A stretch of 54,545 bases of DNA from a virus (Duplodnaviria > Caudoviricetes), in the IMG/VR virus record IMGVR_UViG_3300014508_000071, positions 1-54,545 of that record; one strand, given 5' to 3'. The notes beneath the pieces are model-generated. The model had not been told where the DNA came from and searched no databases. It was given only the letters and a program-made list of their open reading frames with translations. Below, one piece after another: positions 8,526-53,501 of the stretch. Position 1 is the stretch's first letter. Each line of letters begins with the position of its first letter. Position numbers and translations under genes: made by a program.

Positions 8526-8735
8526 TTAATAGTTATCTGTTGCTACCACAAGATCGCTCAATTCTTTATCTGTTAATTCTCTAGCTGTTGCTTTAGGATC
8601 ATACTCACCCCATCTTAAACTTACTTTCAAAAGAGCTGCTTCCTCATCTTTAGCAAAAGTGTAATAAAACTGAGGAACCGTAGTCTCTTTTAGGCTAGGT
8701 CTGTTAATAAAAAAAAGTTTCAACCCTTCTTTCAT
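8526..8735 (-). CDS. hypothetical protein
   Basis: 69-aa ORF between rnr and smpB. Confidence 0.55.
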   Translation of the reverse strand: MKEGLKLFFINRPSLKETTVPQFYYTFAKDEEAALLKVSLRWGEYDPKATARELTDKELSDLVVATDNY

Positions 8736-10630
8736 AACTTAAAGTCAATTAAACGCATCTGTAAATCAACAGATACACATTCTACTTGTACAACGTCTCC
8801 GAGAGTCAATTTGTTACCATCTTGCCCTTCTATTCTGAAGTTTTCTTCATCTAAAGAGTAACCATCTTCATTCAAGACTGCTTGAGGAATAAGTCCTCTA
8901 CACCCTGATTCAGTAAGTTCAACATAGATTCCCCACTTCTTAACATCAGTTAATATGGCTTCAAATTTGTCTCCAATTTTATCACTCATCCATTCAGCTT
9001 GCTTGTAAGCAACTGATTCACGCTGAGCATTTGCTGCATATACTTCTTTCGAAGAACAGTGTTTGCTTTTAGCATCTAGCTTGGAGACTTTAATCTCTCT
9101 TGTTCCAGTTAACTTCTCGTGAAGCAACCTGTGAACCATCATATCTGGATACCTTCTAATTGGTGAAGTAAAGTGAGTGTAGAACTCAAACCCTAAACCA
9201 TAGTGTCCGATATTAAAAGGAGTATAATAAGCCTTACTCATAGTCCTGACCAACAAAGTACTAACCATTGTTTCCTCTGGCATTCCCTTAAGATCATCCA
9301 TAATCTTATTGATGGACTCCTTAGTAGCATCTCCACCGCTTGTGTCTAGTTCATAACCCATCTTGTCCAGAAAGACTTTAACCTCAAACAATTTCTCTTC
9401 CGCTGGTTCATCGTGTGAACGATAAACAGAAGGTCTGTCTGATATAAATTTAGAAACCTTTCTATTCGCCAGTAACATTAAGTCTTCAATCAACTGGTGA
9501 GCATCATGAGCATCATCATATTCGATGTCAATGACTGTGCCTTCTTTGTCAAGAATAAACTTAGGCTGTCTTGAGTGAAACTCTAACGCCTTCTTCTTCA
9601 TTCTTTCCTTACGGAGGTTCTTTGATATCTTATCACAAGTTCTCACCACCTCTGCGGTCTTCTCCTCAAACCCTTCACAACTTCCGTTATCAATCATTTC
9701 TTGCGCCTGAGCATAATTTAACCTAACATTGGATCGAGTTGCTGTTCTAGAAAATTTCTCATTTCTTACTTTTCCTTCTAGAGAGATTTCACACATATAA
9801 GAGAATGTGTACTTATCTTCGTCTGGTCTTAAAGAGCAAACTCCATTAGAAAGACTTCTTGGTAACATAGGAATAACCCTATCCACCAAATAAATTGAAG
9901 TAGCTCTTTGATAAGCTTCTTTATCTAATTCAGAATTAGGTCTCACAAAATGTGTTACATCCGCAATATGGATACCCAGACTAAACCAGCCATTTCCGAT
10001 TGGTTCAAATGAAATTGAGTCATCGAAATCTCGTGCTGTTTCTGGATCAATGGTAAAAGTGAATGTGTCTCTTAAGTCAATTCTGTTCTTTACCTCATTC
10101 TCATCTAATTCCATTGGGATAGCATTGGCTTCCGCTAGAACTTCTTCTGGAAAATCTTCCTGAACATTGAACTTACTTATGATTGATTGAATCTCAGCCT
10201 CATGCTCACCACTCTTTCCAAAGATGTGAACAACTTTACCTTCTGGTCTCCTTTTCTTAGGATTCCATTCAAGAAGTTCTGCTTTAACTCGATCTCCATG
10301 ACTAACGCCATTCTGATACTCTCTTTTAACGTGGAAGTCTGTACCTCCTATGTCAGGGATAAAGAAACAGGTCTTCTGTCTCTTATCTATTGTTCCAACT
10401 ATTGTCTTGTTAGTTCTTTCAAGAACTGCTAAGATTTTAGCGGATAGTGTTGATCGGTTAGGTTGACTGATTAGTTCAACTCGAACCAAATCCTCGTGAA
10501 GAGCTTGTCTTCTGTCTTTTTTGGAAATGTAGAACTTAAATCCGTCCTCACTTTTAAACAATCCTGACCCGTTACCATTTTTATGGTAAAAAGTTCCTTC
10601 TATTACATCTCCATCAAAAAATTCTTTCAT
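8732..10630 (-). CDS. rnr: ribonuclease R (RNB family)
   Basis: TIDPETARDFDDS, HIADVTHFV, GHYGLG-YTHFTSPIRRYPD, C-terminal S1 domain. Confidence 0.93.
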   Translation of the reverse strand: MKEFFDGDVIEGTFYHKNGNGSGLFKSEDGFKFYISKKDRRQALHEDLVRVELISQPNRSTLSAKILAVLERTNKTIVGTIDKRQKTCFFIPDIGGTDFHVKREYQNGVSHGDRVKAELLEWNPKKRRPEGKVVHIFGKSGEHEAEIQSIISKFNVQEDFPEEVLAEANAIPMELDENEVKNRIDLRDTFTFTIDPETARDFDDSISFEPIGNGWFSLGIHIADVTHFVRPNSELDKEAYQRATSIYLVDRVIPMLPRSLSNGVCSLRPDEDKYTFSYMCEISLEGKVRNEKFSRTATRSNVRLNYAQAQEMIDNGSCEGFEEKTAEVVRTCDKISKNLRKERMKKKALEFHSRQPKFILDKEGTVIDIEYDDAHDAHQLIEDLMLLANRKVSKFISDRPSVYRSHDEPAEEKLFEVKVFLDKMGYELDTSGGDATKESINKIMDDLKGMPEETMVSTLLVRTMSKAYYTPFNIGHYGLGFEFYTHFTSPIRRYPDMMVHRLLHEKLTGTREIKVSKLDAKSKHCSSKEVYAANAQRESVAYKQAEWMSDKIGDKFEAILTDVKKWGIYVELTESGCRGLIPQAVLNEDGYSLDEENFRIEGQDGNKLTLGDVVQVECVSVDLQMRLIDFKL

Positions 10631-11285: not shown

Positions 11286-12314
11286 TTAATTTATAATTGT
11301 GTATTGACCGTTTTTAATCTCTACGTTAGTTAGCACAAAACTACTATTAATTGCTTGAACAAACAAATCGAATGCCTCCTTTTTTTCTAAGACCACGACT
11401 TCAACTGGTTTTACATTCTTGTTCACCCATTGAATTTTATCCCACTGATTTCCTCCATCTTTCCCAATTTCTTCTTTACTCCTTACAAGGGTAAATTCGC
11501 TTTTTATTTCTATAAAAGTGTTTTCATACTCAAAGTCTGGAGTATACCATCCTACAGGGGTTTTTATTTTCTTCTTATTCGGTAAAGGTAACGGTAGATT
11601 TTTGTTAATTTTATCTTGAAGATAAGCTACTTCATATGAGCCAAGAACATTGCCAATTTTTGTTTTAAAAGTTCTTGATTTCCCGATCACTGGAGTTCTT
11701 TCTGGAGAACCCCAAGACTCTCTACTTGCTTTTGATATTTTTTGTTTACTTGAAAGAGAGTGAGTTTTTCCAGAAAAACCATGAACAGCTCCATAAATTT
11801 GTCTTAACTCTTTACAAATTTCGCTTTTTGTCAATTTTGGAACACCCCATTTTTCTAACCAATATGAAATAGAGTTATCACTCCTATTAAATAGCCCTCC
11901 TATATATTTAGCCCCTCTTTGTTTTTTTGAGTAGAGGAATATTATTTCTTTTTTTTCCTCTTTAGAAGGCTCTCCTTTTTTTGAAAACTTTGAAGTTCTT
12001 AACTCTAAATCATTATTTTTCAAAACTTTTTTTACTGTATCCTCATGAATACTAAGTTCATTAGAAATCTCCTTAAGGTCTTTGCCCTCCTTTACATAAA
12101 GTTCTATAATTTTAGATGAACTATATTTTTTATCCCTAGAATTAGAAGAGTCATATTTTTTATTTCTTAGAGTTAAATTTGATTTTGATACCCATTTTTT
12201 TACAGTTGCGGGTGTAACTTTTAAGTCCTTTGATATCCTATAAAAAGATTGACCTAACTTATATCTCTCTACAATTTCCCTTCTTGTATTTTCATTAATT
12301 CTTTTTGAACTCAT
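11286..12314 (-). CDS. putative homing endonuclease: tandem HTH + NUMOD3-like + PD-(D/E)XK nuclease
   Basis: HTH-like repeats, HSLSSKQKIS, YTPDF...FIEIKS; very AT/Lys-rich. Confidence 0.75.
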   Translation of the reverse strand: MSSKRINENTRREIVERYKLGQSFYRISKDLKVTPATVKKWVSKSNLTLRNKKYDSSNSRDKKYSSSKIIELYVKEGKDLKEISNELSIHEDTVKKVLKNNDLELRTSKFSKKGEPSKEEKKEIIFLYSKKQRGAKYIGGLFNRSDNSISYWLEKWGVPKLTKSEICKELRQIYGAVHGFSGKTHSLSSKQKISKASRESWGSPERTPVIGKSRTFKTKIGNVLGSYEVAYLQDKINKNLPLPLPNKKKIKTPVGWYTPDFEYENTFIEIKSEFTLVRSKEEIGKDGGNQWDKIQWVNKNVKPVEVVVLEKKEAFDLFVQAINSSFVLTNVEIKNGQYTIIN

Positions 12315-14363: not shown

Positions 14364-15167
14364 ATGGAAAAGAAGTTTTATGTTTATGTATATCTCGACC
14401 CTAGAAAAAAAGGAAGGTTTACATATGAAGATTTAGATTTTTGTTTTCTTTTTGAACCTTTTTATGTTGGTAAAGGTACTGGTCTAAGATATAAAAGACA
14501 TTTATATGATTGTGAAAGATTTAGTAACAACCATAAGTCTTCTAAGATTGAAAAGATTAGAAATGAAGGGCATGAGCCTTTTATCACAATATTAAAAGAT
14601 AATTTATCGGAAAAAAAATCTTTCCAAATTGAAAGCAAAGTGATATCTTCTATAGGTAGAAGTTCTACTAAAGAAGGTAGTTTGACAAACTTCACTCTTG
14701 GAGGTGAGGGTTCTTCTGGAAGGAGAATGTTAAAAGAAACTAAAGAAAAAATAAGAAAAAAAGCTTTAGGGAGAAAACACTCCAAAGAAACTAAGGCTAA
14801 AATGAAAAAAAATAATACTGGAAGGAGGAATCCCAATTTTGGTAATAAGGAAGATAAAAGTTGTTGGTACGGTAAAAAACATTCCGAAGAATCGAAAGAA
14901 AAGATGAGTAAGAATGGAAAAGGAATTTCTAGGAAAAGAGAGTCAGGGAATAGATTGAAAAAAGAAACCAAAGAAAAAATTGGAATTTCTAATTCCAAAT
15001 CAGTTACTATTATTAAAGAAAATGGTGAAAAAATAATTTTCTCAAAAATGACTGATGCAATTAAATTTTCTGGATTAAAAAGCTCTCAAATCAATAAGTT
15101 AATTGAGAGTGGTGAGTTAAGTAAAAGAAAAAAATATAAATTCATAAAATGTCAGATCAAAGGGTAA
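14364..15167 (+). CDS. GIY-YIG homing endonuclease with NUMOD3 repeats
   Basis: FYVYVYLDPR...PFYVGKG..R, LTNFTLGGEG, HSKETKAKM and HSEESKEKMS. Confidence 0.85.
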   Translation: MEKKFYVYVYLDPRKKGRFTYEDLDFCFLFEPFYVGKGTGLRYKRHLYDCERFSNNHKSSKIEKIRNEGHEPFITILKDNLSEKKSFQIESKVISSIGRSSTKEGSLTNFTLGGEGSSGRRMLKETKEKIRKKALGRKHSKETKAKMKKNNTGRRNPNFGNKEDKSCWYGKKHSEESKEKMSKNGKGISRKRESGNRLKKETKEKIGISNSKSVTIIKENGEKIIFSKMTDAIKFSGLKSSQINKLIESGELSKRKKYKFIKCQIKG

Positions 15168-15533: not shown

Positions 15534-15755
15534 ATGATAGAGGAAGAAGAGATAATTAAAATCGTAAAAGACAATATCAAAAGCAGTTCACGTTCCATTC
15601 ATAAACGTGACTTGAAACCAAAAAAATTAATCGAATCCCTTGATAATCAATTTATTTTCTTATCTTTGGACGGTGAAACGATGAGTTATCGACAAGTTTA
15701 TGTTGGAGTTCAGAACTTAATAACCAATAATTTACTAGGAGAGTCGGGTTATTAG
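15534..15755 (+). CDS. hypothetical protein
   Basis: 73-aa ORF. Confidence 0.55.
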   Translation: MIEEEEIIKIVKDNIKSSSRSIHKRDLKPKKLIESLDNQFIFLSLDGETMSYRQVYVGVQNLITNNLLGESGY

Positions 15756-15773
15756 GCATCTTTATAAAAAACA

Positions 15774-16085
15774 ATGGCTAATCAGAAAGACATACAAAGG
15801 GATTTAATCCCAATATGCTGTCAGTTCTTCGGAATTGAAGCTGAACTTTTCCTTTCCAAAAGAAAGCCAAAGGAAGTTGTCCGTGCCAGACGTTTTGTTA
15901 TGGCTTGCCTAAAAGATGATGGAAAAAATTTAGATGACTCCCAAGTAGGAGATATCATCAACAGACACAGAACTACAGTCATCCACAATTTAAAGAAACA
16001 CGAAAGTTTCAAGGAGTTATATCCTGACTATAGAGATGATTATACAGAATTTAGGAATTTCATCAATGAAAATTTTGTATTTTAA
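15774..16085 (+). CDS. stand-alone DnaA domain IV-like HTH protein
   Basis: SKRKPKEVVRARRFVM...VGDIINRHRTTVIH resembles DnaA C-terminal IG..F.RDHTTV.H. Confidence 0.7.
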   Translation: MANQKDIQRDLIPICCQFFGIEAELFLSKRKPKEVVRARRFVMACLKDDGKNLDDSQVGDIINRHRTTVIHNLKKHESFKELYPDYRDDYTEFRNFINENFVF

Positions 16086-16107
16086 AAAATAGTTGTATAT
16101 TTACAAC

Positions 16108-16350
16108 TGTAAAGCTCGCTATTATTTATTAGCGGATCATTACCGAACGAGGGTTCGCTACCCTCCGACTCCACCAAGGAAACAATGGTTTCCAACTATA
16201 AAATGGGGTCGAACGGATTTGACGGGATGAAGAAGTTAACGAAGAGAGTTTACACGTCTATAAACGACAACACAATTAACACAATTGCTGCTACTTTCAC
16301 TCCAGCGAGTGCCGTAGCGCAGCCTGTTGCTCTTGCAGCCTAACAGGTAC
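16108..16350 (+). ncRNA. ssrA: circularly permuted two-piece tmRNA
   Basis: acceptor piece first (T-arm GAGGG-TTCGCTA-CCCTC, CGACTCC-A-CCA ending 16176); 28-nt spacer; coding piece from GGGGTCG at 16205 with G3.U70; tag GAC(16266)..TAA(16343) = DNTINTIAATFTPASAVAQPVALAA*; outer ends approximate. Confidence 0.93.
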
Positions 16351-16359
16351 GAAAAAAAG

Positions 16360-16388
16360 AAAGGGAAGTCTCAGATTTCCCTTTTTTT
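16360..16388 (+). terminator. intrinsic terminator after tmRNA
   Basis: AAAGGGAAGTC-TCA-GATTTCCCTTT plus T run. Confidence 0.85.
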
Positions 16389-16418
16389 ATGCCCTAAAAA
16401 ATAAAGTTGTCAACAGCT

Positions 16419-16442
16419 GCAACATTTCTCTTAAAATTACGT
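16419..16442 (+). promoter_or_regulatory. recurrent G(T/A/C)AAC(A/T)-N15/16-CGT promoter-like motif
   Basis: also at 3192-3215(-), 13825-13848(+), 41510-41534(-), 41967-41990(-), 45439-45462(-), 53714-53738(-), each just upstream of an ATG or transcript. Confidence 0.65.
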
Positions 16443-16481
16443 ATAATACCTGTAACACACTAATTTTAAAACAAACAACAC

Positions 16482-17453
16482 ATGAGGCAATTAAAGATTT
16501 CCGCACAAATTACAAACAGAGAAACAAAATCGTTTGAAAAGTACCTAACAGAAGTTTCTCAAGTTGGGGACACTATTACAGCGGCAGAGGAAGTCGAACT
16601 CGCCATCATTATCCAAACATCAAAAGACCCAAAAGCAGTTGAAAAAGCTGTTAAAAAATTATGTAGAGCTAATCTGCGTTTCGTTATTTCTGTTTCCAAA
16701 CAATACCAAGGACAAGGAATGCCTTTGGGTGAAATTGTTAATGAAGGTAATCTTGGAATGATCAAAGCGGCTTATAAATTCGATCATTCGAGAGGTTTTA
16801 AATTCATTTCTTATGCGGTATGGTGGATACGCCAATCTATCCTGCAAGCAATTGCCGAGACAGGTCGTCCAATCAGACTTCCTTTAAACAAAATTACAGA
16901 ACTCAATAAGGTCAAGAAGATTCTGAATTCAATAGAACAACATCTTGGTAGACCTGCTACCATTTCAGAGATTATTCGTGCTTATGCTAGAAACGAAATG
17001 GTCAGTAGCTTTAAAAAGCAAGGAATTTTATTATCGCCAACTGAAGAAGAAATTACCGTTGCAGTTGACTCTAGAGATTGGAAGTCTCTCACTGATCTAA
17101 TCGAAAGACAATCAAAAAGAATCAGCAGTTTAGATGAGTTCGCAAACGATGAAGATCAAAGCGCAACTATCGGAGACTTAATGGCATCGGGAGGATTCGA
17201 GGAATTAAAGTCTGAATTAAATCAGGCTGATTTGAAAATCATCTTAGAAGGAGTTATGAACAAGCTTCCCGAAAGAGAGCGTTACGTTTTAACAAACTGT
17301 TTCGGTATCGGTGGAACAGAACAAAAGTCTCTAGAAGAGATTGGGTTTAGGTTAGAGCTGACAAAAGAAAGAGTTCGTCAAGTTAGAGAAAAAGGCTTGA
17401 GAAGAATGAGAGTCTTGGATAAATCAGGTCAACTTACTCAGTTTATGAATTGA
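16482..17453 (+). CDS. RNA polymerase sigma-70 factor (Bacteroidota RpoD/SigA-like)
   Basis: ANLRFVISVSKQYQ, NEGNLGMIKAA, GFKFISYAVWWIRQSI, region 4 LTKERVRQ. Confidence 0.93.
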   Translation: MRQLKISAQITNRETKSFEKYLTEVSQVGDTITAAEEVELAIIIQTSKDPKAVEKAVKKLCRANLRFVISVSKQYQGQGMPLGEIVNEGNLGMIKAAYKFDHSRGFKFISYAVWWIRQSILQAIAETGRPIRLPLNKITELNKVKKILNSIEQHLGRPATISEIIRAYARNEMVSSFKKQGILLSPTEEEITVAVDSRDWKSLTDLIERQSKRISSLDEFANDEDQSATIGDLMASGGFEELKSELNQADLKIILEGVMNKLPERERYVLTNCFGIGGTEQKSLEEIGFRLELTKERVRQVREKGLRRMRVLDKSGQLTQFMN

Positions 17454-28490: not shown

Positions 28491-29276
28491 TTACTCTTTT
28501 TCAGCCCAAGTTTTCCATTCCATATCAGCCAAAGGTGAAGGAGTGAAACTTTTTGCTCTTGAAATAACATGGTCAATCGCACCATATGCCTTTGCTTCCT
28601 CAGCTCTTAACCAGTGATCTCTATCACAATCAGCGAAGATTGTTCCGATATCCTGACCAGTATGGTGTGCAATAATTTCATAAAGCTCAAACTTAAGCTT
28701 TTGTATTTCCTTATTGGTATTCTGAATGTCCGTTGCCTGACCATTAGCTCCTCCCATAGGTTGATGCTGCATAAGTCTTGAATATGGAAGAGCATATCTC
28801 TTTCCGTTCTCTCCTGCAATAGCTAAAACGTAAGCCATAGAAGCTGCCATTCCAGTTGTGGTTGTGGATACATCACAAGCAATTTCTTGCATTGTAGAGT
28901 AGATGGAGAGTCCATCATACACCGAACCACCGGGTGAGTTGATATAGATATCAATATCTTCTGATTTGTCTGTCTTTTCTAAATATAGAAGCTGAGACAA
29001 AACAATATTTGCAATCTGAGAATCAATCCCGTATCCTAAGAAAATGATCCTGTCTCTCATCAAACGTGAGAAAACATCGATCACAGCCATGTTTTTTGGG
29101 TTCTCCTCAATTACGTTTGGAGTCATGCCCATGATTCCATCCTTATGGGATATAATCTGGTGAGCATTGTTCATTTGGAGTCCTTGAAACCTCTCCATCC
29201 ATTTAATGTAGTCTTCAGCCTCGGATTTTGTAACCCCGTTAATCGACTGAATGAACTTTAGATAATCATTCATCAT
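28491..29276 (-). CDS. clpP: ATP-dependent Clp protease proteolytic subunit
   Basis: IDVFSRLMRDRIIFLG, YINSPGGSV, GMAASMA, MQHQP, DRDHW; start set at MMNDY, approximate. Confidence 0.93.
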   Translation of the reverse strand: MMNDYLKFIQSINGVTKSEAEDYIKWMERFQGLQMNNAHQIISHKDGIMGMTPNVIEENPKNMAVIDVFSRLMRDRIIFLGYGIDSQIANIVLSQLLYLEKTDKSEDIDIYINSPGGSVYDGLSIYSTMQEIACDVSTTTTGMAASMAYVLAIAGENGKRYALPYSRLMQHQPMGGANGQATDIQNTNKEIQKLKFELYEIIAHHTGQDIGTIFADCDRDHWLRAEEAKAYGAIDHVISRAKSFTPSPLADMEWKTWAEKE

Positions 29277-30120
29277 GTTGAAAATATATTTTATAGTGAA
29301 ATAATAAACTCTTTTTCTCTTTAACCATATCAGCAATACTTTCAGCATGCTTTAGGTTCTCTTTCATTTTTGGCACTTCATTTTCAAAATGATGATAGAT
29401 GAAAGTGCTAGGGTTGTCGCAATCCAAGTAATAAGCATGCGGAATTACTTTATGTGTTTCTTCCGTAAACTGATATGTACCTGCATCTTGGAATATAACC
29501 ATTTCCTTCTTCTCTAGGAGCTTCTTATCCAATTCTAGGAACTCAGTGACATCTACGCCTAAATCCCCCGAAAATACCACCTTAAAATCAGTCTCAAGCA
29601 ATGTGAGAATAAAACCTGAAGTAGGAAGTTTGGGGAAATGTAAATCAGTAGTGTTGAAGTGATCCAATTGGAGTGATGGGAAATCTTTAGAAAAATCTTC
29701 CTCCCAGTAATGGTCTAATTGAAATTGCTCATACTCATGATTACAAACAGTAATCAAGTATGTCGTTAATTGATGGCTGATTGCTGGATGACAAAGAAGT
29801 TTTAATTTCTTCTTATGGATAAACCAGTTCTCATATATCAATGTAGACAATGATCCTATATGATCCTCGTGAGTGTGAGTAATATAAACCCAGTCAATTA
29901 GATCGGTTAAACCCCGCTCCCGAAGTTCTCTGTAAACCAAAGACCCGCAATCTACTAAAAGATTTTTCTTACTTTTCAAATCTCTAACTAGAAAGCTGGA
30001 ATTACCTTCAACAGTTGAAAACGCCCCACCATAACCTAGAGGGGTTATTAGCATGAAGTTGTTCGCATAGCGAGAAATATCCTTAATGTCACTGCTAGTA
30101 ATTGAGTGTGTAATTTGCAT
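29266..30120 (-). CDS. MBL-fold metallo-hydrolase (RNase Z/BN-like)
   Basis: LGYGGAF, LLVDCG, THTHEDH, FSGD. Confidence 0.85.
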   Translation of the reverse strand: MQITHSITSSDIKDISRYANNFMLITPLGYGGAFSTVEGNSSFLVRDLKSKKNLLVDCGSLVYRELRERGLTDLIDWVYITHTHEDHIGSLSTLIYENWFIHKKKLKLLCHPAISHQLTTYLITVCNHEYEQFQLDHYWEEDFSKDFPSLQLDHFNTTDLHFPKLPTSGFILTLLETDFKVVFSGDLGVDVTEFLELDKKLLEKKEMVIFQDAGTYQFTEETHKVIPHAYYLDCDNPSTFIYHHFENEVPKMKENLKHAESIADMVKEKKSLLFHYKIYFQHDE

Positions 30121-39730: not shown

Positions 39731-40686
39731 TGCCAGTAACAGTACAAAATGATAGTTTTAATCCGAGAAAGGTTTATTACAACGTAAATGGAATAACTAA
39801 ATTTGTCTTCCTTAAAGGGCAAGAAGTGTTTACTATTGATGAAATTGACGATCCTTTAGCTTTGCTTAATAGGGTCTCTGTCTTAAAATATCAAATTGAA
39901 CAAAAGACCTCTAATAGCCATAGCCCGAAACAAGCAATATTTGATGTCAATGGAAATTATGTGAGAGTTTCAGCTTCTAGCAGTAGTTATGTTCCGCCAG
40001 TTTATAGATCATATATTTATGTTAACGATAATTCTGACATAGATTTTGATGGAAGTGAAAGTTTTTCTATCTCTTTTTGGTTTAAGCATAACGGAAATTC
40101 CATTATTGCCTCACCAATCAGAAAGCTTTTCAATATAGGATTAGGGCCAGACTTTGGATATCTTCTAAGTATTAACACCTCCACAATTTCTAACTCAACC
40201 GCTCAATTCTCAACTAATGCTGGAGTATCTGTCTCAAACTCATCTACCCCAGCTATAGATTTAACAGCAGATAATTGGAATTTAGTAGTAGGAGTATTTG
40301 ACACTTCAGGTAGAGCTACACTTCAATCAGTAGAAATGAATGGAAATAAATCTAACAACACCGCTGCTCAAACGAATATCAACAATTCTGGAGCGCCTCT
40401 ATATATTCAAGGCAGCAGCAATAACTTAGGTATGGATGAAGTAACTATTTGGGATAAACCTCTCTCGGACGCTGAAACAGCTGAACTTTATAATTCAGGA
40501 GCTGGAATACCCATTACAAGTCACTCAGCTTCTGGAAGTGTTATTAGTCATTACTCTATGGCAGGGGTAGATGCCTTTATCAATGATGGCATCTACCTCG
40601 ACTCTATTGGCAACTACAATGCTCTTACTTCAGGGATCACCGTTAATAACCTATCTGAAGATGGCGTTGGGACTATCGATTTATAA
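39730..40686 (+). CDS. LamG/concanavalin A-like domain protein, possibly virion-associated
   Basis: FSISFWFK, WNLVVGVFD, MDEVTIWDKPLSDAETAELYNSG. Confidence 0.75.
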   Translation: MPVTVQNDSFNPRKVYYNVNGITKFVFLKGQEVFTIDEIDDPLALLNRVSVLKYQIEQKTSNSHSPKQAIFDVNGNYVRVSASSSSYVPPVYRSYIYVNDNSDIDFDGSESFSISFWFKHNGNSIIASPIRKLFNIGLGPDFGYLLSINTSTISNSTAQFSTNAGVSVSNSSTPAIDLTADNWNLVVGVFDTSGRATLQSVEMNGNKSNNTAAQTNINNSGAPLYIQGSSNNLGMDEVTIWDKPLSDAETAELYNSGAGIPITSHSASGSVISHYSMAGVDAFINDGIYLDSIGNYNALTSGITVNNLSEDGVGTIDL

Positions 40687-41500
40687 CAAACTTCCTAACC
40701 TCACTTTCCGTCATAAAGATGTAAACTCCATTAGACAGATTAGTGACATCTATTTTGTTTGAGATATTATTTTGAATAACCTGACCACTCAAGTTAAAGA
40801 TTGTATATTCTACATATTCACTTAACTGAGTAATAGAATTAGATAAATTGATTTGCTTAACAATCTCTAGTGCTGATTTAGTTTGATTTGAGTTCTCGAT
40901 TAACTCTTCAATAGATTTATTATTAGAAGAAACAATAGACTCTCCATCACAAGAGCTTCCAAAAACTGATAGAACCTCTAACATGTCAGGCATGGTAACA
41001 ATACCATCTCCATTTAAATCTGCTGGACAAGGATTTTCAACTTCTACAATAACTTCTGAAACACAAGCATCGGGGCAATTAGAGCCATATACTCCGCCAA
41101 AAACAGAGAACGATATTACTTCAAAAGATTCTGAAAAATAAATAGTAGACTCAAGCACATCACCATTTGATATAATGTTTACTCCAGATGGAATCGTATC
41201 AGGTTGAAGACCGTTCACACTTAAAGTGTAACAGCTATCTGATAGACATAGATTAATGATAGGCGAGTTGCCTAGATTCTGAAAGATTGGATCGCAAGGA
41301 TTTGGAAATTCCTGACCAATACATGGATCATAATAATAGCAAGTTCCCCACAATAAAACATCGGAAGGAGTATTATCACCGAAAAATTCGAGGGTGATAC
41401 AGTTATCAGTGCAATCTGAACAAGCATCTGCTAAAGCATTCTGAGAATACGATGAAACAGAGAGGATTGTTAATACGAGTAATAAAAATATGTTTTTCAT
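40673..41500 (-). CDS. secreted Cys-rich protein with dockerin/EF-hand-like loop and T9SS type A sorting domain
   Basis: signal peptide; CPADLNGDGIVTMPD; C-terminal YTIFNLSGQ...IDVTNLSNGVYIF...RKFVI. Confidence 0.8.
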   Translation of the reverse strand: MKNIFLLLVLTILSVSSYSQNALADACSDCTDNCITLEFFGDNTPSDVLLWGTCYYYDPCIGQEFPNPCDPIFQNLGNSPIINLCLSDSCYTLSVNGLQPDTIPSGVNIISNGDVLESTIYFSESFEVISFSVFGGVYGSNCPDACVSEVIVEVENPCPADLNGDGIVTMPDMLEVLSVFGSSCDGESIVSSNNKSIEELIENSNQTKSALEIVKQINLSNSITQLSEYVEYTIFNLSGQVIQNNISNKIDVTNLSNGVYIFMTESEVRKFVINR

Positions 41501-51031: not shown

Positions 51032-52573
51032 TTAACCTTTCCATTCTCTTAGAGGAACTACCTCATGAAAGACATTGCCTTCCTTTTTGAAGTAACCCTT
51101 CCTTAAAAACTGTACTGGATATTCTTTAACCAATCCGTAACGAGTCAAACTAGGTTCGACATAACCCTTAGAAGTAAATACCTCATCTCCAGAATACTTC
51201 TTTACTTCAATCTCATCAGCATGCTCACAACTGACCCAGTGAATGGTTCCTTTAATCTTCCGATCTAGTTCCATGCCAGATTTAGAGTTTGGATCAAAAG
51301 TACAGTATACAGTTTCAATATTGCCGTCTATATCCTTATCACAGGACACCGCCTTAATCACATAAGCGCCTTTTAAACGAACCTCTCCATCCAACTTGAG
51401 TCTATGATACTTTCGGTTACCTTCCTCTCTGAAATCCTCTCTTTCGATGTAAATTTCTCTTGAAAAAGGAACTTCTCTACAGATAGCATCATCTGCATTA
51501 GTTAGGTCTATCTTAAAAACCTCTTCCGCAAGAATATCGTAGTTTTCAATCACAACTTTAATTGGATCAAGAACTCCCATTAATCTTAAAGAAGAACTAT
51601 TTAACTCCTCTCTAATGCAAGCTTCAAGAAGTTTTGGGTCGGTTTCCGAAACAAACTTAGTAATTCCGATCTTATCACAAAAGTACTTAATTGAATCTGG
51701 AGTATAACCCCTTCTTCTCAATCCTTTCAATGTATAAAGTCTCGGATCATCCCACCCATCAAACTTACCTTCATCGATCATTGAGCTTATTAACCGCTTG
51801 CTTGTAATACCTTCCGAGATATTAAGACGAGCAAACTCTATTTGTTCTGGCTTTAAATTATCGTTAAGGCAATGCTTATCAATAAACCAATTATAAAGTG
51901 GTCTATGAACTTCAAACTCCAAGGTACAAAGTGAGTGAGAAATGCTTTCAAGGTAATCGCAAAAGGGGTGAGCAAAATCGTACATTGGATACGCTGACCA
52001 TTCACTGCCAGTTCTATAATGAGGCTTATTGACAACTCTGTAAATCACTGGATCACGCATAAGCATGTTATCGTGAGTCATGTCAATTTTAGCACGTAAA
52101 ACCATCGAACCTTCCTTTTCTTTACCCTCAATCATTGAATTAAACAAATCGAGACTTTCCTTTGGATCACGATCTCTATAAGGAGAGTTTGTTCCGATAG
52201 AAGTTGGAGTACCCTTCATTTCTGCAATCTCTTCTGAAGTAGATTCATCTACATAAGCCCAACCCATTTCAATAAACCTCTTTGCTATCAAATAAAGATC
52301 GACAAAATAATCTGAAGCATAAGTTATCTCAGAAGGTTTGAACCCAAGCCATCTAACATCATCCTCAATTGATTTGACGAAACTCTCATCCTCAGTTAAA
52401 GGGTTAGTATCATCAAACCTCAATACTACTGGCGCAGAGTGCTTTTCACCCAATCCGAAGTTCAAGCAAATTGCTTTAGCGTGTCCGATATGTAGGTAGC
52501 CGTTTGGCTCCGGAGGAAAACGAAACTTTAATTTCTTCCCTGATTTCGATACTATTTCTTCAATAAAGTTCAT
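51032..52573 (-). CDS. glnS: glutaminyl-tRNA synthetase
   Basis: RFPPEPNGYLHIGHAKAI, RFDDTNP, YPMYDFAH, SHSLCTLEF, QIEFARLN, TSKR, GWDDPRL, KGTIHWVS. Confidence 0.95.
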   Translation of the reverse strand: MNFIEEIVSKSGKKLKFRFPPEPNGYLHIGHAKAICLNFGLGEKHSAPVVLRFDDTNPLTEDESFVKSIEDDVRWLGFKPSEITYASDYFVDLYLIAKRFIEMGWAYVDESTSEEIAEMKGTPTSIGTNSPYRDRDPKESLDLFNSMIEGKEKEGSMVLRAKIDMTHDNMLMRDPVIYRVVNKPHYRTGSEWSAYPMYDFAHPFCDYLESISHSLCTLEFEVHRPLYNWFIDKHCLNDNLKPEQIEFARLNISEGITSKRLISSMIDEGKFDGWDDPRLYTLKGLRRRGYTPDSIKYFCDKIGITKFVSETDPKLLEACIREELNSSSLRLMGVLDPIKVVIENYDILAEEVFKIDLTNADDAICREVPFSREIYIEREDFREEGNRKYHRLKLDGEVRLKGAYVIKAVSCDKDIDGNIETVYCTFDPNSKSGMELDRKIKGTIHWVSCEHADEIEVKKYSGDEVFTSKGYVEPSLTRYGLVKEYPVQFLRKGYFKKEGNVFHEVVPLREWKG

Positions 52574-53341: not shown

Positions 53342-53346
53342 ATATG

Positions 53347-53418
53347 TTTCCTGTGATGGTATCGATCCATCTCTAACTGCTTCAAAGGCAGTTGGACTAG
53401 CCAGTATCCGAACAGGAA
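53347..53418 (-). tRNA. tRNA-Gln(TTG)
   Basis: acceptor TTCCTGT/ACAGGAA; anticodon arm ACTGC-CTTTGAA-GCAGT; T arm GATGG-ATCGATA-CCATC; no encoded CCA. Confidence 0.88.
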
Positions 53419-53428
53419 ATATTACTTG

Positions 53429-53501
53429 TTACCCCACTTGGACTCGAACCAAGACAGACACAGCTTCAGAGGCTGTCGCACTACCATTATGCTATGGGGC
53501 A
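53429..53501 (-). tRNA. tRNA-Gln(CTG)
   Basis: acceptor TGCCCCA/TGGGGTA; anticodon arm ACAGC-CTCTGAA-GCTGT; T arm CTTGG-TTCGAGT-CCAAG; no encoded CCA. Confidence 0.92.

Follow-up and report, generated by a model that had tools for sequence, protein, structure and literature searches.

A compact, circularly permuted tmRNA gene on a contig of a probable Bacteroidota jumbo phage, with a possible independent origin of the permutation

Does a short locus on a viral contig encode a working transfer-messenger RNA (tmRNA) whose two halves stand in reversed order, and from where would such an arrangement have come? The stretch of DNA analysed here (the window) is the complete IMG/VR virus record IMGVR_UViG_3300014508_000071, 54,545 bp long with 35% GC. 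A preliminary description of the window, made from its letters alone, had proposed a circularly permuted, compact, two-piece tmRNA in a Bacteroidota-type phage at positions 16108-16388. Judged by its sequence, 16108-16388 (+) is indeed a genuine circularly permuted tmRNA gene of the two-piece type; it belongs to the general two-piece class and to none of the three clades described. It is very probably a working ssrA gene on a jumbo phage of Bacteroidota, with a predicted function that would follow the mechanism set out below.

Several independent features identify the gene (coordinates in Table 1). The merged Rfam model tmRNA_permuted (RF04321) finds 16114-16343 (+) with a score of 67.2 bits, above its cut-off of 47, and an E value of 7.6e-11 for the window as a whole. 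ARAGORN, at the relaxed threshold -ps90, reports a permuted tmRNA spanning 16083-16434, and its tag, DNTINTIAATFTPASAVAQPVALAA, is the one derived separately from the relatives described below. The one-piece model RF00023 has no match in the window at its gathering threshold. Regarding the clade-specific models, alpha_tmRNA (RF01849) is not listed among the clan matches, so that it scores less than 34.9 bits and falls below its cut-off, and cyano_tmRNA (RF01851) is not listed at E <= 10 and could at most be one of three lower-scoring clan matches that were omitted. The motifs named in the preliminary description were all found at their places, namely the encoded CCA (16174-16176), GGGGTCG (16205-16211), the 28-nt spacer with its hairpin, the alanine determinants G3.U70 and A73, and both pairings between the pieces: the acceptor stem GGGGTCG/CGACTCC has 7 of 7 pairs, including G3.U70, CGGGATGA at 16223 lies opposite TCATTACCG at 16137, and GAGTTTACA at 16246 lies opposite TGTAAAGCTC at 16108.

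Signals for transcription flank the gene. A promoter-like site precedes it and would place the start of transcription at about 16108, the base with which pairing in the acceptor piece begins. The GTATATTTACA(A) box occurs at the same place in seven of the eight family members introduced below, L184 being different, and a related phage (L099) has a one-piece tmRNA behind the same GTATATTTAC box; across the window as a whole the GTATATTTACA promoter motif is not enriched. At the other end, a hairpin followed by a T run is present at the place of the terminator in all eight members; a consensus terminator scan missed 16360-16388 because its loop is longer than 8 nt.

The relatives were collected through the sigma factor gene that lies directly downstream. 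Eighty viral loci were fetched with this sigma factor, and their whole records were scanned with RF04321 in batches of 50 and 30. In the first batch, nine of the 50 records had a match at E <= 0.01; in six of these the permuted gene is real, and five of the six are distinct (L082, L083, L084, L085, which is identical to L087, and L086); the gene is located directly upstream of the sigma gene in L082, L083 and L085/L087 and about 0.8-1.3 kb upstream in L084 and L086. The match in L088 (L021/L088) proved to be the 3' end of a one-piece tmRNA and was rejected. The second batch gave six weak RF04321 matches, with partial model coverage only. A model built from the window and L082 (R1) and run over 261 sources (81 + 80 + 100; L191-L207 and L325 onwards left out) added only L274 and L184, and its match in L231 was discarded as a chance match within coding sequence. 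The family consists of eight distinct members: the window, L082, L083, L184, L084, L085, L086 and L274. Synteny of sigma factor and tmRNA genes was recorded in L002, L005, L006/L039, L007, L025 and L184. In addition, a sigma-factor scan of metagenome contigs returned matches of only 41-45% identity, which may be largely bacterial RpoD and one of which (L184) comes with a family member, a scan of viral contigs for the promoter plus the tRNA-like domain (TLD) returned at least 117 stretches, almost all due to chance, and blastn of the gene against 50,697 GenBank phage records gave no match.

Comparison of the members supports the structure. When the loci were sliced at fixed anchors, without any model, all eight showed 7/7 acceptor pairs, 5/5 T-arm pairs, G3.U70 and A73, the acceptor stem having six different sequences at positions 4-7 among them. 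The helix P2a is wholly changed yet paired (CGGGAUGA/UCAUUACCG, UUCAUUA/UAAUGAA, UUUAUUA/UAAUAAA, ACACGAAU/AUUUGUGU and AUUUGAUA/UAUCAAAU). Covariation was measured over four helices in an alignment (A3) of six of the eight members, which was fitted to the family's own model R1 and therefore leans towards structure: 97.4% of the cells are paired, compared with 74.8 +/- 2.6 in shuffled data, none of 500 shuffles equalling the observed value, and slid controls are 43.5-53.1% paired. Both sides have changed in 18 of the 29 pairs, including 7 of 8 in P2a and 5 of 9 in P2c. Two further alignments were set aside, A1 (MAFFT), in which the 5' halves were misplaced by the differing spacer lengths, and A4, which contained four spurious rows and a misaligned L085. 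The claim of a circularly permuted two-piece tmRNA is thus borne out by the Rfam score, by ARAGORN -ps90, by the anchors conserved in eight of eight members and by covariation.

The region between the two halves is variable. Counted after the three CCA positions, the spacers measure 15-30 nt, 66 nt and 198 nt across the family. CCA is encoded in the window and L082 only, so that the six other members would need CCA addition. The hairpin of the spacer is kept in L082 with changed letters (GAAAAC/GTTTTC). In L085 (= L087, L006, L039, L247) the intervening sequence, of about 200 nt, contains a 60-aa open reading frame (ORF), MKTTKKLLIVLALALGAC..., with what resembles the signal peptide of a lipoprotein ahead of a Cys-rich peptide, a small gene inside the intervening sequence of a tmRNA.

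A tag reading frame opens in all members behind a UAUAAAC|GAC or UUAAAC|GGC-like context and spans 24-31 codons in seven of the eight. Between the tags of the window and L082 there is a 3-nt indel that keeps the frame, and those of L083 and L184 both have 31 codons. Tags called by ARAGORN are identical to the derived ones for the window, L084, L086 and L184. The first residue is G in five members and D in two; the tag of the window ends in ...PVALAA, and an AA ending is found in five of the eight. Five members have no ATG, GTG or TTG between the nearest in-frame stop upstream and the resume codon; in L082, the nearest relative of the window, this stop lies 45 nt upstream of the resume codon and no start codon follows it. 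Right after the tag stop of the window, a (C)GGUACGAA-like stretch (16344-16353) is kept in four to five members (window, L082, L083, L184, L085). One-piece tmRNAs of 365-505 nt were observed in the related large phages L099, L100, L102 and L103 (records G018, G010, G014 and G020; contigs of 75-519 kb), and some of their tags are very long, e.g. GETKVVNLFDNVQNVVQEVRLAA and ANVYNAEDMMSIPTSITRVAVAEEAELLMAA, so that a long tag seems typical of these phages, be the gene one-piece or permuted.

Two-piece co-folds of the members share a common plan: an acceptor stem formed in trans, a D-loop analogue of 11-15 nt, P2a, an interrupted extension of P2 and a tiny hairpin at the resume codon. The P2 extension (P2c) is formed by the 5' end of the acceptor piece and the stretch that leads up to the resume codon (16108-16117 with 16246-16254 in the window); the window's own minimum-energy fold pairs this 5' end with the end of the tag, and the comparative data favour P2c. 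The resume hairpin is predicted in five of six member co-folds and its stem varies from GUC/GAC in the window to GCC/GGC in L082 and L085 and GCU/GGC in L086, which offers it weak support because it is so short.

The preliminary description had also called the gene compact, with little room for pseudoknots, and the measured lengths agree. For a transcript extending from about 16108 as far as the terminator, the RNA would measure 69 + 184 = 253 nt, compared with 362-412 nt for 34 one-piece genes of Bacteroidia. The resume codon stands at position 62 in the window and 55-71 in the family, versus 87-99 (median 96.5) in the 34 Bacteroidia tmRNAs. Between P2a and the resume codon there are 35 nt, of which nine are paired with the acceptor piece and three lie in the small hairpin, and 16 nt separate the stop codon from the terminator, which begins 17 nt after the stop. 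With the resume codon at 62 and the terminator 17 nt past the stop, there is room neither for the first pseudoknot (PK1) nor for PK2-PK4. Judged by the available length, the RNA is without PK1 and PK2-PK4, short tertiary contacts being possible. The modelled long trans helix and the 3-bp resume-codon hairpin stand where PK1 normally is. A loop-loop contact between UUUAU (16125-16129, in the acceptor hairpin) and AUAAA (16260-16264) may stand in for PK1, and UUGAUA faces UAUCAA at the corresponding places of L085; this complementarity is AU-rich and may be due to chance.

The source of the window is most likely a jumbo phage of Bacteroidota, as several sequence signals suggest. As CheckV estimates 18% completeness for 54,545 bp, the window would be a piece of a phage of about 300 kb. 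The sigma factor (16482-17453), nearest among cellular proteins to RpoD of Bacteroidota, has its best 80 matches in one-genome-per-species contigs at full length and 41-45% identity, and 76 of the 80 titles are ones which we take to be Bacteroidota. Three of the four exceptions are on contigs of 5-13 kb and one is on a 27-kb contig; one of them, G273, grouped with Bacteroidota genomes. The Bacteroidota promoter pattern TTTG-N17-21-TAnnTTTG occurs nine times in the window compared with 2.6 +/- 1.6 expected, a count reached in none of 100 shuffles. The phage SmpB scores higher against 39 Bacteroidia genomes (median 134.6 bits, best 157.5) than against 40 alphaproteobacterial genomes (median about 111 bits, best 133.5), the medians having been computed from the match listings. 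Its nearest GenBank phage homologues, sharing 41-47% identity, belong to the Lak phages and LR756501, which are huge phages assigned Bacteroidetes hosts in the relevant passages of PMC7162821. A tblastn search of GenBank phages found nothing above 37% identity for the RecD-like helicase, 36% for the sigma factor and 47% for SmpB. The viral contig, the sigma factor homologues, the promoter pattern and the SmpB scores all accord with the Bacteroidota-type phage first proposed. A C-terminal sorting signal for type IX secretion is characteristic of Bacteroidota, and a weak match to such a domain at 40673-41500 (-) (23.4 bits, cut-off 27) is a faint hint to the host.

How did a permuted gene come to be in such a phage? 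No permuted gene scored over the cut-off in 151 sampled Bacteroidota genomes, where eight sub-threshold matches were the 5' halves of one-piece genes, nor in the 41 Bacteroidota genomes of a second sample. A one-piece gene is over the cut-off in 37 of 41 Bacteroidia genomes, and a permuted gene in 40 of 41 Alphaproteobacteria genomes (89-163 bits), a tally that includes one unpublished genome left out of all sequence work. One-piece tmRNAs over the cut-off were also present in five of the 50 related large phage records. A genome labelled Polynucleobacter (the above-mentioned G273) had been taken as a beta sample and was dropped, as it grouped with the Bacteroidota samples; the beta and cyano lineages were compared through the Rfam models only, and the published two-piece genes of phages by description.

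The characters of the family itself are of the Bacteroidia type. Indeed (i) the T loop, UUCGnnn in the phage family versus GGCRGUA in the alpha clade, starts with GGC in 29 of 29 alpha genes and in none of the eight permuted phage genes, and with UUC in 34 of 34 Bacteroidia genes, in four of four one-piece phage genes and in seven of the eight permuted ones, (ii) the acceptor stem and T stem of the window are identical to those of one Flavobacterium and one Aquimarina tmRNA, (iii) the TLD of L274, GACAGCAAU.../AUUGUUUGGACGAGGGUUCAACUCCCUC, is almost the Bacteroidia consensus, including the bulged U of P2a, (iv) the resume context, UAUAAAC|GAC or AAAC|GGC, matches that of Bacteroidia, whose tags, read in frame by ourselves, begin mostly with G (29 of 34) and sometimes with D (3 of 34), after ...AAAC/AAAU/AACU, and (v) alpha tags start with ANDN in the four of four genes called by ARAGORN and the Rfam beta consensus starts with ANDE. 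A tree of 63 columns unites the alpha genes in a clade with 100/100 support and places all eight phage genes on the side of the Bacteroidia with 94/90 (not starred), the window and L082 grouping with two Bacteroidia tmRNAs (97/95). These characters point, with reasonable confidence, to a permutation that arose from a Bacteroidia-type one-piece tmRNA, probably within phages, and independently of the alpha, beta and cyano lineages.

A number of results weigh against a working gene of such an origin. The RNA's two mature pieces, its charging and its tagging are predicted from sequence, and the assignment of the host phylum is likewise indirect. ARAGORN in its default mode finds no tmRNA in the window, and over the family it misses four of the eight members (the window, L082, L083 and L085). 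RF04321 gives the family 36-67 bits (window 67.2, L082 62.4, the others 36-40 and hence below the cut-off of 47), compared with 89-163 bits in Alphaproteobacteria; with four of eight missed by ARAGORN and six of eight below the Rfam cut-off, annotation pipelines for phages will under-call these genes. Among the clade-specific models, the best is beta_tmRNA (RF01850), at 34.9 bits and E 4.4e-9, with a cut-off of 84. PK1 is generally held important for tmRNA function, so tagging by a tmRNA in which it is absent would be unusual. Not all tags have the expected end, those of L084 (...ELA), L085 (...ELV) and L274 being different, and the tag of L274 is uncertain (NNFKSYPNE in our own reading, PQEKRNFY according to ARAGORN). 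Finally, the eight phage genes occupy four places in the tree, and approximately unbiased (AU) tests on the 63 columns leave both a single phage clade (p 0.245) and a clade of phage and alpha genes (p 0.166) unrejected. The independent permutation suggested in the preliminary description is pointed to, but not proved, by the Bacteroidia-type characters and by the lack of a permuted gene over the cut-off in the 151 sampled genomes.

The AU result bears on the possibility that an already permuted gene was acquired from the beta, cyano or alpha lineages or from their marine phages and then drifted to a Bacteroidia-like form under the alanyl-tRNA synthetase (AlaRS), RNase P, EF-Tu and proteases of the host. 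The unrejected clade of phage and alpha genes leaves space for such a history, as do the first rank of beta_tmRNA among the clade-specific models and the RF04321 consensus, in which the acceptor piece likewise uses its 5' end to pair directly ahead of the tag region. This DNA is present in runs from marine and ice metagenomes, and according to the sections of PMC9004378 on phage tmRNAs, two-piece forms are frequent in marine phages and transfer between hosts of different classes has been proposed. Against this, every clade-specific model scores below its cut-off, the alpha T loop is found in none of the eight phage genes but in all 29 alpha genes, the tags start with G or D and not with the AND(N/E) of alpha and beta, the TLD of L274 is near the Bacteroidia consensus down to the bulged U, and the known two-piece forms typically keep PK1 and PK2 (as described in passages of PMC3985003), for neither of which there is room here. 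Acquisition of a ready-made permuted gene is therefore regarded as unlikely.

A second possibility is that the locus is a relic that does not tag, either a piece of ssrA left behind by integration into the tmRNA gene of a host (a 3' half resembling attP) or a decoy of tRNA-like form which, in the manner of the DS6A gene, titrates SmpB. Phages often carry 3' fragments of ssrA, a phage gene limited to the TLD is known (described in parts of PMC4131195 and PMC11915505), and the RNA has no pseudoknots. Nevertheless both halves are present and covary across the members, the tag is preserved in length, in frame and in its hydrophobic end, and the phage has an SmpB of its own, which a decoy would not need. 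Constraint on the gene argues in the same direction: of the 16 listed variable sites of two contigs from other samples (X2 and X5, Table 1), none falls within 16056-16350 (binomial P 0.0026), that is, there are no substitutions in the gene and 16 in its flanks. A non-functional or non-tagging relic is accordingly very improbable. Still less credible is an ordinary small protein gene with RNA features arising by chance, for although a 52-aa ORF with an ATG start is present at 16185-16343, the lack of a start codon after the in-frame stop in five of eight members, L082 included, rules out an ordinary ORF, this one included, and the Rfam match and the covariation argue against it as well.

An assembly artefact joining the ends of a one-piece gene or of a tandem repeat, named beforehand as what could overturn the permuted reading, can practically be dismissed, as Logan contigs from three other runs of three other studies (X2, X5 and X9) cross the 16176/16205 junction without gaps, so that independent assemblies bridge CCA, spacer and GGGG, seven contigs from other samples have the same gene order, and the middle of a one-piece gene (PK2-PK4) occurs nowhere in the window (RF00023, gathering threshold). 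At 15752/15753, outside the gene, the X5 contig has 336 extra bases between two small ORFs, an indel in a phage closely related to this one. No RNA run was found among the public runs that contain the sequence.

Table 1. Positions in the window of the permuted tmRNA gene and its parts, of the partner genes and of the contigs that cover the junction.
Feature	Position	Strand	Remarks
Promoter-like site	16074-16103	+	TTTG (16074-16077), 18-nt spacer, TATATTTA (16096-16103); like the Bacteroidota -33/-7 type
Acceptor piece, 69 nt	16108-16176	+	Covariance model, slicing, covariation, co-folds
P2c 5' strand	16108-16113 and 16115-16117	+	In acceptor piece
Local hairpin	16117-16121/16130-16134	+	In acceptor piece
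P2a 3' strand	16137-16145	+	In acceptor piece; A16142 bulged
T arm	16149-16165	+	GAGGG-TTCGCTA-CCCTC, loop TTCGCTA
Acceptor 3' strand	16166-16172	+	CGACTCC; then A73 (16173) and CCA (16174-16176)
Intervening sequence, 28 nt	16177-16204	+	Presumed lost on maturation; hairpin GGAAAC (16178-16183)/GTTTCC (16188-16193)
Coding piece, 184 nt	16205-16388	+	Acceptor 5' strand 16205-16211, D-loop analogue 16212-16222
P2a 5' strand	16223-16230	+	In coding piece
P2c 3' strand	16246-16254	+	In coding piece
Small hairpin	16256-16268	+	GUC-UAUAAAC-GAC; 3' strand is the resume codon
Tag frame	16266-16343	+	Resume codon GAC 16266-16268; 25 codons, DNTINTIAATFTPASAVAQPVALAA; stop TAA 16341-16343
Intrinsic terminator	16360-16388	+	AAAGGGAA, 9-nt loop, TTCCCTTT, T run
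SmpB, 148 aa	8070-8516	-	PF01668, 171.3 bits (cut-off 27); about 8 kb from the tmRNA gene
RNase R/RNase II-family exoribonuclease	8732-10630	-	PF00773 (RNB), 349 bits; phrog_13933; cold-shock, RNB and S1 domains; adjoins smpB
ClpP protease subunit	28491-29348	-	PF00574, 230 bits
Sigma-70 family factor	16482-17453	+	Pfam matches to regions 2 and 4; follows the tmRNA gene directly; marks the family by synteny
Contig X2	15753-16601		12 differences
Contig X5	15753-16700		17 differences
Contig X9	15897-16249		6 differences, all upstream of 16056

The phage also encodes proteins with which such an RNA could work (Table 1). An smpB gene is present in the window and in the records of three of five relatives. 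The neighbouring RNase R-like enzyme could, by analogy, take part in the decay of non-stop mRNA, and the phage ClpP may be linked to the breakdown of tagged proteins; a ClpX-type AAA_2 domain was not found in the window.

Gene order, covarying helices, identity elements, the start-less tag frame, the partner genes and the host-phylum signal are directly supported, and a working permuted ssrA gene is expected to act as follows. A single transcript would start about 5 nt past the Bacteroidota-type -7 box and end at the terminator. RNase P would cut 5' of G16205 (16204/16205), the 28-nt spacer being lost, and the 3' end at the CCA (16176) would be made by exonucleolytic trimming where CCA is encoded, or by RNase Z and CCA addition in the six members without it. 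Base pairing in the acceptor stem (7 bp), in P2a (8 bp) and in P2c (9 bp) would keep the 69-nt and 184-nt pieces joined. The host AlaRS would charge the RNA through G3.U70 and A73, the phage SmpB would bind it, and SmpB and EF-Tu would deliver it to a stalled ribosome. Translation would resume at GAC 16266 and terminate at 16341, adding DNTINTIAATFTPASAVAQPVALAA after the alanine borne by the RNA; the ...ALAA end could then direct the tagged product to Clp-type proteolysis, and the RNase R-like enzyme of the phage could degrade the broken mRNA. A guess at the purpose is that ribosomes would be kept free and truncated proteins recycled via Clp while the phage destroys host mRNA. The fuller picture, in which an independent permutation of a Bacteroidia-type gene in jumbo phages of Bacteroidota gave a pseudoknot-free tmRNA of about 253 nt that works with the phage's SmpB, RNase R and ClpP and adds tags of 24-31 residues, is about evenly balanced between being right and being wrong.

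The window further encodes DnaJ and a RecD-like helicase and has a terminase-like gene. At 51032-52573 (-) there is a gene for a class-I Glu/Gln-tRNA synthetase (306 bits for the catalytic domain), with tRNA-Gln(UUG) and tRNA-Gln(CUG) adjoining at 53346-53501 (-); together they look like a glutamine-decoding module of the phage. A metallo-beta-lactamase-fold protein (29266-30120 (-); Lactamase_B_2, 39 bits), whose gene overlaps the start of clpP and which has an Apyc1 match below the cut-off, may be either an anti-defence phosphodiesterase or an enzyme of 3' processing similar to RNase Z. Two homing-endonuclease-like genes, of the GIY-YIG/NUMOD3 type (14364-15167 (+)) and the HTH/HNH type (11286-12314 (-)), lie within 5 kb of the tmRNA gene.

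This is not the first two-piece tmRNA, nor the first in a phage. Permuted tmRNAs are recorded from three bacterial clades and mitochondria in passages of PMC11915505 and PMC3985003, and the list of permuted lineages in the preliminary description, which named the bacteria, omits the two-piece tmRNAs of marine phages, which make up 53 of 133 unique phage tmRNAs in the account given in PMC9004378; these earlier reports lower the novelty of a phage having one. Like the alpha, beta and cyano two-piece tmRNAs (RF01849, RF01850, RF01851), the phage family has the order 3' tRNA-like half, CCA, spacer, 5' half and tag, an acceptor stem and a long P2 that join the pieces, and G3.U70 and A73. Unlike them, it has tags of 24-31 residues starting with G or D where theirs start with AND, scores below the clade cut-offs, has no room for PK1 and PK2, and occurs in phages whose presumed host phylum has one-piece genes. 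The marine phages (OM43 phage Melnitz, pelagimyophages and cyanophages) also have a permuted ssrA behind a promoter and near a transcription factor gene, as described in the tmRNA section of PMC9004378; there, their genes group with the alpha or cyano lineages of present or former hosts, whereas the window family, compared with them by description only, is of the Bacteroidia type, and permuted genes are not known from the phylum of its presumed host.

The published megaphages of Bacteroidota (Prevotella Lak phages and LR756501/LR756504) resemble the phage in being large and in encoding SmpB, a tmRNA, a sigma factor and other translation genes, according to the pertinent sections of PMC7162821, but their tmRNA is the standard one-piece form in three of four records and permuted in none of the four. 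The one-piece tmRNAs of Bacteroidia (Flavobacterium and Aquimarina; L406, L407) share with the window GGGGUCG/CGACUCC, the T stem GAGGG/CCCUC and a ...UAAAC|GGC context, and their tags are of the GENNYALAA type, where L086 has GENF... and the window has DN...; they differ in having 362-412 nt, PK1-PK4 and a tag of 9-10 residues, as against 253 nt and 25 residues. The TLD-only gene of mycobacteriophage DS6A is likewise a reduced, phage-borne relative of tmRNA, but it has no tag frame in the description given in PMC4131195, and the window family has one. In the literature searched, which did not include the supplementary taxonomic table of PMC11915505, no description of a permuted tmRNA from a Bacteroidota phage was found. 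What appears to be new is the lineage, whose origin is probably separate, together with the minimal design free of pseudoknots, the length of the tags and the linked set of SmpB, RNase R and ClpP; two-piece tmRNAs of phages and huge phages with tmRNA and SmpB are already known.

Among gene rearrangements that have arisen repeatedly and convergently, the circular permutation of tmRNA is a textbook example. A further origin within phages of a phylum with one-piece genes would, if true, mean that this rearrangement can arise on a mobile genome, and that a phage runs its own ribosome rescue with its own SmpB instead of copying that of its host. The family amounts to a minimal tmRNA of natural origin; were it to tag proteins with none of PK1-PK4, it would set a lower bound for trans-translation and provide a compact scaffold for structural and engineering work.

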